Below, one piece after another: positions 3,418 through 17,967 of a DNA stretch of 64,000 nucleotides. The notes below the pieces were generated by a model. The model had not been told where the DNA came from. It ran no database searches and saw only the letters and a program-made list of their open reading frames with translations. The stretch is from Candidatus Moraniibacteriota bacterium (GTDB lineage Bacteria; Patescibacteriota; Minisyncoccia; Moranbacterales; UBA2206). A program made the position numbers and the translations under genes. The stretch lies in the NCBI GenBank assembly GCA_049303905.1, contig JBAQNP010000017.1, forward strand, positions 4 through 64,003, read 5' to 3'. The first letter of the stretch is position 1; each line of letters opens with the position of its first letter.

Positions 3418-3430
3418 CAGATCTATTTTA

Positions 3431-3458
3431 AAACGGACTTGCTAGTCCGTTTTATTTT
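3431..3458. terminator. Bidirectional intrinsic terminator (ACGGACT-TGCT-AGTCCGT flanked by A/T runs)
   Basis: 7-bp stem between tRNA-Gln (+) and the minus-strand NUDIX gene stop; T-run follows on the + strand and an A/T-rich run follows on the minus strand. Confidence 0.6.
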
Positions 3459-3858
3459 GAAAAATTTTTTTTATTGCAAGAAAACACTTTCTGTTATTAT
3501 CCAAACTAGTATAAGTATCCTTATCAACCCAGCGATAATCAGTATGTTCATTACTGAGCTTAAGCTTTCCCGATACATATTTGCATTTATAACCAACTAT
3601 AAATACACGTTTTCCGACGTGCCTATATTGAGGCCCAAAATCATAATACCAAGTTGTAAATGGTTCACCAATTTCAATATCTAGATTAGTTTCTTCCTTA
3701 ACTTCTCTCCTCAATGAAGCTACTAAATCATCCTCCCCTTCTTGAATCTTTCCACCAGGTAAATCTAATTTTGATTCCTCATTAAAAAGGACTAGGAGTT
3801 GTCCATCCTTTTCAATAAAAGCTTTTTGTCCTACGAAAAAATCCTTATCGTTAGCCAT
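3442..3858 (-). CDS. NUDIX hydrolase (start at internal MANDKDFF)
   Basis: Nudix box GGKIQEGEDDLVASLRREVKEETNL (GX5EX7REVXEEXGU pattern). Confidence 0.75.
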   Translation of the reverse strand: MANDKDFFVGQKAFIEKDGQLLVLFNEESKLDLPGGKIQEGEDDLVASLRREVKEETNLDIEIGEPFTTWYYDFGPQYRHVGKRVFIVGYKCKYVSGKLKLSNEHTDYRWVDKDTYTSLDNNRKCFLAIKKIFQNKTD

Positions 3859-3966
3859 ACATATATAATAGATGAATATACTAGTAAAATCAATACATAA
3901 GTCCATAGAAGTAAATCCTCTTGCGTTGAAATACCGTAAGGCATCTCGTTAAAGCAAGTGGTTTTT

Positions 3967-4356
3967 TTATTCGTAATATTTACTTATTTTTTTATTATTA
4001 CTAGTAGCACCATATACACCTCGATTGGTATCTTCATCTGTTTTGTATGAAATCTTACGAGTAATACTAATTTTTCTTAATTCTTCGCGAATCCGTTTCA
4101 CGTCATTCTCATCTCGCCAATCATAAGTATAAACACAAATAATCCTAACTTTTGAATTTGGAAATTCTGGGTTAACTTTCGCAGTTGCCACTTTGGATAT
4201 ACCGCCAAGATTTCCTTCTTCAGTAGCTTTTTTAATTTTCATCCAAATTCTATTAACATTATAAGCACTGACAAACAAAAGCCATTTTCCGCCATATCTG
4301 GTATGCTCTGGATATTTATTACTTTTATTTTCAGCGTAAATCCAATAAGCATTCAT
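3967..4356 (-). CDS. Hypothetical small protein; possibly PUA-like (EVE/ASCH-type) fold
   Basis: YWIY...GGKWLLFVS pattern is reminiscent of EVE/PUA-like domains; pattern guess only; third gene of the PrimPol-helicase operon. Confidence 0.4.
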   Translation of the reverse strand: MNAYWIYAENKSNKYPEHTRYGGKWLLFVSAYNVNRIWMKIKKATEEGNLGGISKVATAKVNPEFPNSKVRIICVYTYDWRDENDVKRIREELRKISITRKISYKTDEDTNRGVYGATSNNKKISKYYE

Positions 4357-4393
4357 AAGTATTTAAGAATAATTTTTATAAAATAATTCTGTT

Positions 4394-4906
4394 TTATCTT
4401 GGAAAAAATTCCCAAAACATTTCTTGCAAATTGTCATTAAAACCCCAACCAATATTCTCAGTGTCTTTCACTATTTTTTCAAAACGACTCATGAATAAAT
4501 ATTCTATTCGATACCCCAAAACATATTCTGCTGCCTTTTCATACATTCTTTCCATACTTGCATAAAAAGGCTCGTCAATGTCTCCAAATGCGTTGGTATA
4601 TTCTACTCCAATTTCAACATAATAAATCATAACATCTGCCACATTTCTATTGTTTTTACTTAACTTAGTAAAATCACTCACCGCCTTGCGTGCAACTGAT
4701 AATTTTGCGTCACCACCCCAACCTCGATTTGGCAAAAATTCATCTTTAATGATCTTCTTATATTTTTTCAATAACTCCTCCTCGCCATTTTCAGAAAATT
4801 GAGCTTGGTAATATTCACGCACATCTGGATATAATTTATGCAATTTTTTAATTTCCTCAATCAGTTGCTCTGTCGACAAAGATTTTAGATGTTTTGAAAT
4901 TTCCAT
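4394..4906 (-). CDS. Hypothetical alpha-helical protein
   Basis: Intact ORF, same strand and tight spacing with flanking genes; no recognisable motif. Confidence 0.45.
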   Translation of the reverse strand: MEISKHLKSLSTEQLIEEIKKLHKLYPDVREYYQAQFSENGEEELLKKYKKIIKDEFLPNRGWGGDAKLSVARKAVSDFTKLSKNNRNVADVMIYYVEIGVEYTNAFGDIDEPFYASMERMYEKAAEYVLGYRIEYLFMSRFEKIVKDTENIGWGFNDNLQEMFWEFFPR

Positions 4907-4958
4907 AGATATAATTCTTAATGTTTTATACTTTTTATATTTTCAAATCAAAATTTTT

Positions 4959-16117: not shown

Positions 16118-16433
16118 TTTTATTGAGATTTTTTGCGCGGTCTTTTATCAAGAGTGTTTGCATTTTCTCGCCCCAATTAATAAAGGATCTTTCTATTTTA
16201 GAATTTGAACTAATGGGATTTTCTTTGTTTATAAACAAAAAGGGGGTTATTGATGAAGGGTGAACATTCATTCTATCGGCTAGCTTCAAAAGGAAGTTTT
16301 TTGACACTTCTTTTTGTCCTGTTTCAATCATTGTAATAAGCACAGCAGAAACACCGATTGCATCGGCAAAATCAGCTTGGGTCAGCCCAGCTTCGTCCCT
16401 TATTTTTTTAATTAATTCTGAAAATGTATACAT
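16104..16433 (-). CDS. XRE-family HTH transcriptional regulator, translationally coupled to RT
   Basis: LTQADFADAIGVSAVLITMIETGQKEVS Cro/C1-type HTH; 14-nt overlap with RT start. Confidence 0.75.
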   Translation of the reverse strand: MYTFSELIKKIRDEAGLTQADFADAIGVSAVLITMIETGQKEVSKNFLLKLADRMNVHPSSITPFLFINKENPISSNSKIERSFINWGEKMQTLLIKDRAKNLNKNAKS

Positions 16434-17095
16434 AAACGACTAAATGGCAGCTACTTGAGAAGATCTAAAATGATACGAAGTATTACAGCGATAAGCCGTA
16501 ATATCCGTAACCATTTTTTCATAACAAGTAACTGCCACTTTATACGGAAGGCACAATTCAGTAATGCACTTGGTTTTTTTTATCATATGATTTCCGTTAA
16601 AAGACAGTTAATTAAAAAATTTTTTATTTAACGGACACAACCAAATCCTCACGGTTATCAAGTTCGATCAAAAACCTTCCGGTAACAACCTATAACCGTG
16701 TGGCTATGGTAGGTCCTGCGCAAGAAAATATTATATCAATATGATACAATATACTTGTCTTAACTCGTGCAAATGAATATATAGTGTTATATCTGATATA
16801 AGAGCATGTGCATGGTGAGTTCCACTCTAAAATTAAAGCAAGAATGGCCAGATATTTTCCAAAAGGAAATCATCTACAATATTCGAATAGATAATCGTTT
16901 TTTACGTGAATTGATTTTTTAAATAACTAGCTGTCTATATTCTATTATATACGAAACGTATAGATTGTGTCAAGAGTATTTTTTTTCGGAAATTTTTTAA
17001 TCGCTTTATTACATCTTTGGCTTGAGAGTGATTTGTTTTCGAGGTATAATAGAAAAAAGAGGTCAACTACCTTTTTTAGATTTAGGAAATAATTC
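16434..17095. other. ORF-free structured region upstream of the HTH-RT pair (candidate ncRNA / RT template)
   Basis: ~650 nt without ORF >=60 aa; several stems: GGCAGCTACTTG/CAAGTAACTGCC, CCGTTAAA/TTTAACGG, CACGGTTAT/ATAACCGTG. Confidence 0.3.
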
Positions 17096-17120
17096 TTGTT
17101 AAGTAATATGTTAAGTAACA
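17096..17120 (+). promoter_or_regulatory. Operator/promoter-associated motif TTGTTAAGTAATATGTTAAGTAACA (copy 2)
   Basis: Near-identical to 8449-8473; TATAAT at 17133-17138, 7 nt before ATG 17145. Confidence 0.45.
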
Positions 17121-17144
17121 TTTTTTTAGTAGTATAATTAAGTT

Positions 17145-17426
17145 ATGTTCGATCAAATGAAATACAATTTTTGGCCATTGATAAAAACCCGATTGATTTT
17201 TTGGTGGTGGGTTTTGAAGTATCGTGGCAAGAAAAATATTCCACCGGAAGTTGTTTTTGAAGCGATGGCAAAAACAATGGCAAGTCTGAAAGAGAATTTG
17301 CAAATGGCACGCATCTGCGCGACAAATTCAGATGATGTTGACAAGAAAGAAATGGAAGAAATATACGACGCGATAAATCGCACGGATAATTTGGAAAAAG
17401 AAATAAACAGAATTCAAAAAAAGTAG
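17145..17426 (+). CDS. Hypothetical small protein
   Basis: ORF directly downstream of the shared motif and a TATAAT box; no known domain. Confidence 0.3.
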   Translation: MFDQMKYNFWPLIKTRLIFWWWVLKYRGKKNIPPEVVFEAMAKTMASLKENLQMARICATNSDDVDKKEMEEIYDAINRTDNLEKEINRIQKK

Positions 17427-17595
17427 CGAACAGCTTTTATGCATTATAAAAACAAAATTTTTGAAGAAAAAGAAGTTCGCGGGGAACATTTTTCGGATTG
17501 TCAGTTTTTGGCTTGCTCCTTTCCTAAAATAAACCTAAAATTCACTACTTCTAACAACAATTGACATCCGCAGAAGCTTAATATAAAATAAAACT

Positions 17596-17940
17596 ATGGA
17601 TGAGGAAAATAATACAAATAAATATGTTACTGGAGAATATCTAGACAAAAGATTATCTGAGAATAATCAGATTATTCTTAGTGCGGTAGATTCCATTTTA
17701 ATTAAGCGTTTAGAAGAATCCGATACTAGAACTGGCAGTCGTTTTGACGCAATGGCCAATCGCTTGGATAGTATGGAATCGCAACTAGGCAATAAAGCGG
17801 ATAATGTCCAAACTTTGATTGACGGCTATGTGAAAGCACAGGAAGATTTCAAACAAGAATTTACTGTTATGCGAGAAGAGTTTAGACAAATGAAACAGAT
17901 TATAAAAGAAAAACTAGGAATTGAAATAAGAGCAATGTAA
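17596..17940 (+). CDS. Coiled-coil protein, paralog of 24700..25092
   Basis: Shares MDEEN start and ILIDGYVKAQE...MKQIIKEKLGIEI C-terminal with the 130-aa paralog; followed by terminator. Confidence 0.55.
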   Translation: MDEENNTNKYVTGEYLDKRLSENNQIILSAVDSILIKRLEESDTRTGSRFDAMANRLDSMESQLGNKADNVQTLIDGYVKAQEDFKQEFTVMREEFRQMKQIIKEKLGIEIRAM

Positions 17941-17967
17941 AAAAATATAACATTAAACTATCCAAGT

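Follow-up and report, generated by a model that had tools for sequence, protein, structure and literature searches.

The 64,000-nt stretch of DNA analysed here, hereafter the window, lies on a metagenome-assembled contig of Candidatus Moraniibacteriota, which belongs to the candidate phyla radiation (CPR; Patescibacteria). Between its tRNA-Gln gene and the core gene encoding PBP1A, the interval from 3419 to ~17050 very probably constitutes a mosaic anti-phage defence island, built piecemeal from at least four modules in a lineage-specific variable hotspot. Clustered there are a Type I restriction-modification (R-M) system, an Abi_C/AbiJ gene, a putative Type VI retron and the PADLOC candidates PDC-S05 (RhuM) and PDC-S07 (Nudix). 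The original prediction, made from the sequence alone, had placed an island of non-housekeeping genes at 3420-17960. The genes it listed are real and, according to their Pfam and PADLOC assignments, of the defence type rather than metabolic, and defence cargo does lie between tRNA-Gln and PBP1A. Its right edge, however, needs to be moved from 17960 to ~17050, because open reading frame (ORF) 93 is conserved at the level of core genes and is thus backbone, and because the segment 17439-17558 corresponds to the start of ORF192. By this comparison the variable cargo is assigned to 3419 to ~17050, or ~13.6 kb. The following features frame it:

142-810, GtrA-like gene, left flank
957-2597, dnaX, left flank
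2584-3330, plus strand, ORF248, occupying the gap between dnaX and tRNA-Gln; weak N-terminal helix-turn-helix (HTH) match (HTH_23/CENP-B_N, E ~1e-3, under the Pfam cut-offs)
3346-3418, plus strand, tRNA-Gln (UUG; ttg), the left anchor; ARAGORN call, Rfam 64.5 bits
17145-17426, plus strand, ORF93, conserved backbone gene and not cargo; 90-91% identical in the relatives L081 and L089
17439-17564, plus strand, truncated ORF192 remnant (first 40 codons, 17439-17558), 80% identical to the N-terminal part of ORF192 in L081
17596-17940, plus strand, ORF114, coiled-coil protein adjoining PBP1A, locally variable; weak match to Sipho_Gp157 (6e-4, under the cut-off)
17989-20277, minus strand, PBP1A, core gene and right anchor; Transgly 1e-57, Transpeptidase 8e-30; 100% identical to a protein from a Candidatus Moraniibacteriota metagenome-assembled genome

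Relatives were traced from PBP1A homologs to the contigs that carry them, which yielded three syntenic loci whose PBP1A is 87-88% identical to that of the window. All three share GtrA-dnaX-tRNA-Gln as the left flank and PBP1A as the right, and ORF93 is also kept on the PBP1A side in L081 and L089; in the window, the right flank continues beyond PBP1A with rplL, rplJ, rpsP, smc, rnc and nusB. Their gene orders are:

L081 (Moranbacteria GW2011_GWF2_36_839): dnaX, GIY-YIG, tRNA-Gln, RhuM, four hypothetical genes, ORF93, ORF192, PBP1A, rplL
L086 (CG23 Moranbacteria): dnaX, tRNA-Gln, GIY-YIG, Bro-N, MazE-like, Eco57I-like methyltransferase, 237-aa gene, HARE-HTH, PBP1A
L089: dnaX, GIY-YIG, tRNA-Gln, 129-aa gene, DUF4238, ORF93, ORF192, 60-aa gene, PBP1A, with RhuM remnants

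Nucleotide homology with these relatives amounts to 84-92% in the flanks, breaks at 3418 and picks up again at ~17051-17117. The left break is sharp: the tRNA-Gln gene is 98.6% identical in L081, and homology to this contig stops exactly at 3418, the 3′ end of the tRNA. The equivalent cargo of the relatives measures ~2-5 kb versus ~13.6 kb in the window. In tblastn searches the cargo of L081 and L089 and the GIY-YIG ORFs of the relatives found no match in the window (RhuM, which L081 shares, is treated below), and the MazE-like gene was the sole match of the L086 cargo. As expected from the predicted island, the flanks are thus kept while the cargo differs, and the same gene set was seen in none of L081, L086 and L089. 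In more distant genomes (L084, L091 and L092, PBP1A at most 74% identical) synteny is lost altogether. Judged from these alignments, the interval reads as a variable hotspot with different genes in each close relative and not as ancestral content.

The cargo itself can be resolved into the following modules, of which the first corresponds to an insertion between the tRNA and RhuM when compared with L081:

3419-7212, an archaeo-eukaryotic primase (AEP) fused to an XPB-like helicase and accompanied by DUF6155, Bles03-like and Nudix genes; located exactly at the tRNA 3′ end
7213-8412, RhuM, probably the oldest resident
~8413-15087, an AbrB/MazE-like regulator, HsdR, fused HsdM-HsdS, the Abi_C HEPN protein and ORF234, a putative R-M unit
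15088-17000, the putative Type VI retron: promoter, structured RNA, small ORF, HTH and reverse transcriptase (RT)

The third module is the largest and contains the following genes:

8492-8674, plus strand, MazE/AbrB-like protein of 60 aa directly before hsdR; MazE_antitoxin 1.8e-6
8643-11237, plus strand, HsdR; ResIII 1.6e-40 (superfamily 2 (SF2) motor), HSDR_N_2 9e-9 (N-terminal nuclease region)
11242-13656, plus strand, fused HsdM-HsdS of 804 aa; N6_Mtase 1.4e-56, Methylase_S 5.4e-43 in two stretches that represent two target-recognition domains
13660-14421, plus strand, Abi_C/AbiJ-like HEPN protein; Abi_C 6.5e-24, PADLOC AbiJ 1.5e-22
14443-15147, plus strand, ORF234, uncharacterised family, last gene of the R-M operon

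HsdR, whose true start is likely the ATG at 8679 as judged from translation, and the fused HsdM-HsdS are predicted to form a complete Type I system. The fusion is also found in L084 and in the Gracilibacteria locus L177. The MazE/AbrB-like protein occupies the position of a controller protein and is a candidate controller of the operon; its homolog in L086, 56% identical, precedes the Eco57I-like methyltransferase. The Abi_C protein carries the Rx4-6H motif as RNKYGDAH at residue 206. In L084 this protein is 96% identical and the region 13520-14497 is 90.6% identical at the nucleotide level, whereas PBP1A reaches only 74% and has another gene context. A 96% identity of Abi_C compared with 74% for core genes therefore demonstrates recent horizontal transfer among Moranbacteria. 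In the same genome ORF234 has been swapped for an unrelated 218-aa gene after a common start of 19 codons. In L177, HsdR and HsdMS are followed by a gene of 67 aa, by Hypoth_Ymh (161 aa) at the position of Abi_C, and by an ORF234 homolog. This operon of L177 abuts a large serine recombinase (8694-10016), which hints that the R-M/ORF234 block can travel on an integrative element.

ORF234 itself has no match in Pfam, NCBIfam, PADLOC or PHROG. Its family comprises 67 homolog clusters that come without annotation, the few named members being from the CPR and the rest unnamed metagenome records. Within the motif RNKGFGH, the residues R124, N125, G129 and H130 are invariant. The AlphaFold 2 (AF2) model is all-alpha with a predicted local distance difference test (pLDDT) score of 91.4, and Foldseek found no significant match to this fold in the PDB or BFVD. 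A HEPN assignment could not be confirmed, as the HEPN chains retrieved by Foldseek had an E of ~3.5 with template modelling (TM) scores of 0.26-0.35, and hhalign against Abi_C gave a probability of 0.4%. Because a confident all-alpha model lacking a PDB or BFVD match is combined with an invariant RN...GH motif, ORF234 could be a new effector that guards the R-M system.

The R-M system would methylate the host's own DNA and cut unmodified incoming DNA. Should it be blocked, Abi_C and ORF234 might form a second line, on the model of PrrC, the abortive-infection nuclease embedded in the Type I R-M operon EcoprrI. HEPN genes linked to R-M systems were reportedly described by Anantharaman et al. 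in 2013. As in EcoprrI-type operons, the hsdR, hsdM and hsdS functions are combined with a HEPN gene (Abi_C/AbiJ-like, Rx4-6H) in one operon. In contrast to these, HsdM and HsdS are here fused into a protein of 804 aa, a MazE/AbrB-like gene stands at the controller-protein position and the additional ORF234 lies downstream. The combination of a fused-HsdMS Type I enzyme with an exchangeable third gene (Abi_C or Hypoth_Ymh) and a member of the ORF234 family may represent a CPR unit that has not been described.

The fourth module is transcribed in the opposite direction and consists of:

16944-16973, minus strand, sigma-70 promoter TTGACA-N18-TATAAT, the sole 12/12 consensus match in 3300-18100
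16437-16935, minus strand, structured leader RNA of ~500 nt, candidate msr-msd/hybrid RNA (hyRNA)
16440-16586, minus strand, small ORF of 48 aa inside the structured RNA, candidate small protein (SP) toxin
16104-16433, minus strand, Cro/C1-type (XRE) HTH protein of 109 aa; HTH_3 1.3e-13, PADLOC best match HTH_VI 1.7e-13
15140-16117, minus strand, retron-type RT; RVT_1 2.7e-12, YVDD at residue 211

The best PADLOC match of the RT is RT_VI at a moderate 95.7 bits (7.1e-28, positions 5-272 of 279), followed by RT_II-A at 1.3e-15; with the NCBIfam model retron_St85_RT it scores 60 bits, under the cut-off of 235. Together with its promoter, covarying RNA and small ORF, the HTH/RT pair is thus classified, on profile matches and gene order, as a Type VI retron. 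Type VI retrons are organised as a structured 'hybrid RNA' that holds the msr-msd and the SP coding region, followed by HTH and then RT. The arrangement here is the same, with the HTH gene overlapping the RT start (by 14 nt), and in both cases the 5′ part of the RNA pairs over a long range with the SP coding region. On the other hand, the small ORF has 48 aa compared to 75-79 aa in the three published SP clusters (Mestre et al. 2020, PMC7736814), and the RT motif is YVDD as opposed to YADD in Retron-Vpa2 (bioRxiv 10.1101/2025.10.22.683967). The published Type VI catalogue already holds a CPR member, a Levybacteria retron.

In the leader RNA, which folds with z = −5.5, the small ORF is enclosed by a long hairpin at the 3′ end (16437-16546) together with a long-range helix between 16907-16913 and 16554-16560. 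We aligned five homologous loci, for which the structure has 122 consensus pairs. With the reservation that only five sequences are compared and that this alignment also supplied the structure, 87% of positions are paired versus 33-43% when the partners are slid, and 37 pairs have both sides changed, compared to 17.3±2.9 in shuffled alignments (0/500) and 5-12 with slid partners. No Rfam family matches this RNA. The small ORF is open in the same frame at 5/5 of the loci (47-56 aa), with a common stop and indels in multiples of 3. It has no profile match, is shorter than published SPs, and its conserved residues coincide with bases of the RNA stems. A palindrome, TATACGTTTCGTATA (16948-16962), lies within the retron promoter and is kept at 5/5 loci, making it a candidate operator for the HTH protein.

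Nearly all of the few named members among the 384 database hits of the RT family belong to the CPR, and the names given are generic throughout; a scan of viral contigs found no relative of the RT. Copies of the retron block (15088-17000, 1.9 kb) are present in L173 (86% identity), again with an ORF192 homolog as neighbour, and in L174 (73% identity); in L175 and L176 HTH-RT pairs are found among pilus, smpB and ftsH genes, which are unrelated core contexts. By analogy with published Type VI work, in which the SP is a toxin neutralised by the HTH protein (Retron-Vpa2, bioRxiv 10.1101/2025.10.22.683967; Retron-Sen3, bioRxiv 10.64898/2026.04.27.721009), the small protein would be the toxin and the HTH protein its antitoxin or a repressor. 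The RT and RNA could then couple release of the toxin to phage recombination or anti-RecBCD functions, as has been reported of Vpa2 and Sen3.

The second module contains a single gene:

7274-8314, plus strand, RhuM family; Virulence_RhuM 1.3e-102 (positions 2-248 of 252), PADLOC PDC-S05 1e-145

L081 has a RhuM protein 81% identical at the same position, the gene and its upstream 60 nt being 82% identical at the nucleotide level, and short RhuM remnants remain at this site in L089. Because of the L081 copy and the L089 remnants at the same site, RhuM is older than the split of these genomes. The window also contains a partial paralog of 171 aa (43032-43547, minus strand), which covers the N-terminal region with 46% identity over 161 aa. 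It adjoins tRNA-Val (43640-43712, minus strand), the second tRNA gene of the window, and this site may be another variable spot. A perfect palindrome with 14-bp arms and a 3-nt loop lies within the rhuM coding sequence (7480-7510) and is not found in the L081 rhuM.

The first module, adjacent to the tRNA, is the most difficult to interpret:

3430-3453, hairpin AAAACGGACT-TGCT-AGTCCGTTTT, read from the sequence between tRNA-Gln and the end of the Nudix gene; likely a bidirectional terminator
3442-3906, minus strand, Nudix hydrolase, last gene of the operon; NUDIX 6.5e-15, PADLOC PDC-S07 3.3e-15, Nudix-box core REx2EE
3967-4356, minus strand, Bles03-like protein of 129 aa; Bles03 1.7e-23, PDB 1ztp (human BLES03/C11orf68) 2.7e-7
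4394-4906, minus strand, DUF6155 protein of 170 aa; DUF6155 4.6e-19
4959-7163, minus strand, AEP (PrimPol-type) primase fused to an XPB/Rad25-like SF2 helicase; AEP-TOTE 2.9e-88, ResIII 7.4e-34, Helicase_C 2.3e-13

The AEP domain matches PF22548 over its full length (positions 1-229 of 230), and both the DFDD and GGH motifs are intact. Matches of the fusion protein in the PDB include XPBII (5.5e-25) and 7nqd ('TPR_REGION domain-containing protein', 8e-10), while the helicase part matches the phage helicase family phrog_16 of PHROG at 7e-64. TOTE, in the account of Aravind, Iyer et al. (2022) as relayed in bioRxiv 10.1101/2025.09.15.676423, refers to TPR, OB, TBP and Effector. The AEP domain is shared with TOTE systems, but here it is fused to an XPB-like helicase and TPR, OB/cold-shock and TBP genes are lacking: Pfam and NCBIfam searches detected no such domain among the operon's genes. 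The DUF6155 protein, modelled by AF2 from a single sequence, is all-alpha at low confidence (pLDDT 63) and not a TBP-like alpha/beta fold. Full TOTE membership is ruled out, since the TPR, OB and TBP partners are missing both here and among the common neighbours of the homologs. The CRISPR-associated primase-polymerase CAPP (PDB 7nqd, 7nqf) likewise has an AEP fold that is detectable by sequence, and the NCBIfam model for CRISPR-associated primase-polymerase type A1 (PrimPol_Msp) is matched at 8e-24, but at 84 bits this is far under the family cut-off of 200, and the island has no CRISPR-Cas locus.

Of 80 metagenome loci retrieved with homologs of the AEP-helicase, ~55 (L093-L147) were inspected for neighbouring genes. 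The four genes of the predicted PrimPol-helicase operon are present and co-oriented, yet they do not form a conserved system, as a Bles03-like neighbour occurs at 2 of the ~55 homolog loci, DUF6155 at 1 and Nudix at 0. At the 35 low-GC loci (L093-L127), 89 neighbouring ORFs were compared, and Fic (10), AAA_14/DUF4143, PIF1, NYN, AbiEi, nSTAND3 and Schlafen-AlbA2 were encountered most often; the 25 commonest families include no integrase and no TPR, OB or TBP domain. Full-length plasmid homologs (~33% identity) are annotated merely as DEAD/DEAH helicases, and one from an Acinetobacter plasmid lies among HigB, HipA and AAA genes. The homologs thus sit in a setting of the defence and toxin-antitoxin type, and the primase-helicase is a candidate defence gene.

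A number of observations weigh against the defence-island reading or make it less secure. The syntenic relatives are three in number and all are metagenome assemblies. Base composition offers little help, as the GC profile suggested by the original prediction turned out not to be distinctive (0.344 in the island versus 0.360 in the right flank). The tetranucleotide distance of the whole island is 0.123 versus 0.081±0.012 for core chunks, which also contribute to the background, and 0/200 core chunks of the same size reach the island value in what is a biased control; no single module is an outlier. The weak deviation is consistent with donors of similar composition. As predicted, no recombinase was found: profile searches of all ORFs of at least 80 aa between 2584 and 17940 revealed no integrase, transposase, resolvase or recombinase domain. 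The repeat of the tRNA-Gln 3′ end proposed for the right boundary did not materialise either, since no k-mer of at least 12 nt from tRNA-Gln or the 25 nt flanking it has a second occurrence in the window and an attachment (att) repeat is thus lacking. Because the edges have no integrase, att repeat or transposase, we can only infer the route of acquisition, which was most likely homologous or illegitimate recombination with related CPR DNA and not a resident integrase. Foldseek and hhalign detected no similarity of ORF234 to any known effector. Finally, an E. coli plasmid region holds a full-length homolog of the AEP-helicase (32% identity) with AlpA, YfjI/DUF3987 and inovirus-type Gp2 genes next to it, a context that a role in the replication of a mobile element fits as well as defence does.

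This last finding bears on the alternative that fares best, although we consider it somewhat unlikely, namely that 3419-7212 is the remnant of a mobile-element replication module while the other modules remain a defence island. The intact catalytic motifs of primase and SF2 helicase, the phrog_16 match, the AlpA and YfjI genes of the E. coli context and the lack of conservation of the accessory genes beside the homologs are all compatible with it. However, Pfam places the AEP domain in a family named for TOTE conflict systems, the low-GC loci are dominated by Fic, NYN, AbiEi and nSTAND3 with integrases absent from the commonest families, and the Acinetobacter homolog keeps company with toxin-antitoxin type genes. 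In addition, viral contigs contain no close homolog and no fusion, but only distant matches to the helicase domain alone (24-29% identity).

If, on the other hand, the whole interval were one tRNA-targeting integrative element (an island, satellite or integrated plasmid) with a decayed integrase and att site, the primase-helicase would be its replication gene, as is typical for such elements. The start of the cargo exactly at the tRNA 3′ end would be readily explained, and the E. coli gene context, the serine recombinase beside the R-M/ORF234 block of L177 and a partial tRNA-Gln 3′ repeat of 31-36 nt in L086 would fit as well. This is nevertheless improbable. The L086 repeat flanks only a GIY-YIG ORF of ~290 bp and not an island, the window has neither an integrase nor a tRNA repeat of at least 12 nt, the AEP-helicase fusion occurs on no viral contig, and RhuM, in the middle of the island, is common to L081 at the same site with remnants in L089. 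Moreover, the modules differ in their distribution and in their identity to relatives, so that at least four separately distributed modules take the place of the single insertion that had been supposed. That the content is ancestral to the clade and that the relatives differ by differential loss alone is highly improbable, since, in spite of RhuM and ORF93 at the same positions and the clear deletion remnants of RhuM in L089, the cargo of each relative is unrelated and not found in the window save for the L086 MazE-like match, the 96% identity of Abi_C versus 74% for core genes in L084 requires horizontal transfer, and the retron is present in unrelated contexts.

A mosaic defence island thus accounts best for the data. 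A direct repeat of 30 nt, 27/30 identical, flanks exactly the MazE-R-M-Abi-ORF234-retron block:

8449-8478, plus strand, left copy, ~20 nt upstream of the ATG of the MazE-like gene
17096-17125, plus strand, right copy, ~20 nt upstream of the ATG of ORF93

Its 25-nt core has 2 matches versus 0.00 expected, and looser versions are present at other CPR loci. The repeat may be a shared promoter or operator, or an att-like recombination scar. In L081 the 30-nt motif ahead of ORF93 is interrupted by a MITE-like (miniature inverted-repeat transposable element) insertion of ~110 nt with terminal inverted repeats (~12690-12800). A degenerate, promoter-like segment of ~47 nt (CTTGAA-N17-TGATAnT) is furthermore found on both sides of rhuM, at 7214-7260 and 8365-8411. 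Because L081 has this segment only once, upstream of rhuM, the order of the segments is circularly permuted with respect to L081. Both the 30-nt repeat (8449, 17096) and the ~47-nt segments may serve as sites of cassette exchange. A broader proposal, that the hotspot swaps cassettes without an integrase by means of conserved promoter-bearing repeats and that, in addition, the R-M operon is an undescribed multi-gene CPR unit, seems to us rather unlikely.

Makarova, Wolf, Snir and Koonin are said to have described in 2011 how defence islands occupy variable genomic hotspots, and the hotspot concept is known from E. coli and Pseudomonas pangenomes. The present island has in common with these the clustering of unrelated defence systems, conserved core flanks, cargo that differs between relatives and a site adjacent to a tRNA gene. 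It differs in its host, uncultured CPR Moranbacteria, in having no integrase or mobile-element hallmark and in a composition that is hardly distinctive. Defence-island concepts remain unchanged by it, and we regard it as a sound but fairly ordinary instance of a known phenomenon whose interest lies in the CPR host and in two poorly characterised components. CPR bacteria have tiny genomes, an episymbiotic lifestyle and few CRISPR systems, and their resistance to phages is poorly documented. A Moranbacteria lineage would here spend ~13.6 kb of a small genome on layered immunity (R-M with candidate HEPN back-ups, a Type VI retron, RhuM and a primase-helicase gene) at a site that turns over between near relatives. 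Two candidates lend themselves to cloning: the retron clade, whose named members come mainly from the CPR and in which promoter, RNA and small ORF are well defined, and the unannotated ORF234 family, which is linked to Type I R-M operons and whose named members are from the CPR.

The individual systems named in the original prediction have held up well. The Type I R-M system has strong profile support for HsdR and the fused HsdM-HsdS, the HEPN-motif gene is confirmed by its Abi_C match and its RNKYGDAH motif, and the XRE-HTH/RT pair is present and could be specified further as a Type VI retron, RT_VI and HTH_VI being the best PADLOC matches. RhuM is found at 7274-8314 as stated, and the remark that this is a full copy is explained by the partial N-terminal paralog at 43032-43547. 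Two small genes, the MazE-like ORF of 60 aa and the retron ORF of 48 aa, were not on its list. The coiled-coil paralog is ORF114, of which a second copy (42% identity, 130 aa) lies at 24700-25092 on the minus strand in the core region between smc and rnc; the N-terminal 57 aa of ORF114 are also 42% identical to the 60-aa ORF of L089.

Two further candidates were discarded. A prophage remnant is rejected, as structural and lysis genes are lacking and PHROG gave matches to generic helicase, primase and Nudix families and, for Abi_C, to one family of unknown function. The 790-aa SMC_N protein (22243-24615, minus strand) matches PADLOC mad3, AriA and GajA, but is a false positive as a defence gene; it lies outside any island because it is the syntenic core smc, located beside rnc in the relatives.

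The gap between dnaX and tRNA-Gln is itself variable, with ORF248 in the window and a GIY-YIG ORF of 83-98 aa in the relatives. This slot corresponds to:

2584-3330 in the window
11487-11883 in L086
7239-7669 in L089
16492-16851 in L081

ORF248 is unmatched in L081, L086 and L089 at both the nucleotide and the protein level. In L086 and L089 the GIY-YIG ORF lies between the complete tRNA-Gln gene and a partial copy of that gene, and it looks like a tiny homing-endonuclease element that would be aimed at the tRNA gene. In L081, L082 and L083, which make up the GWF2_36_839 lineage, PBP1A is broken into two ORFs of 171 and 583 aa (e.g. L081 9471-11752), which is a frameshift or an assembly error.

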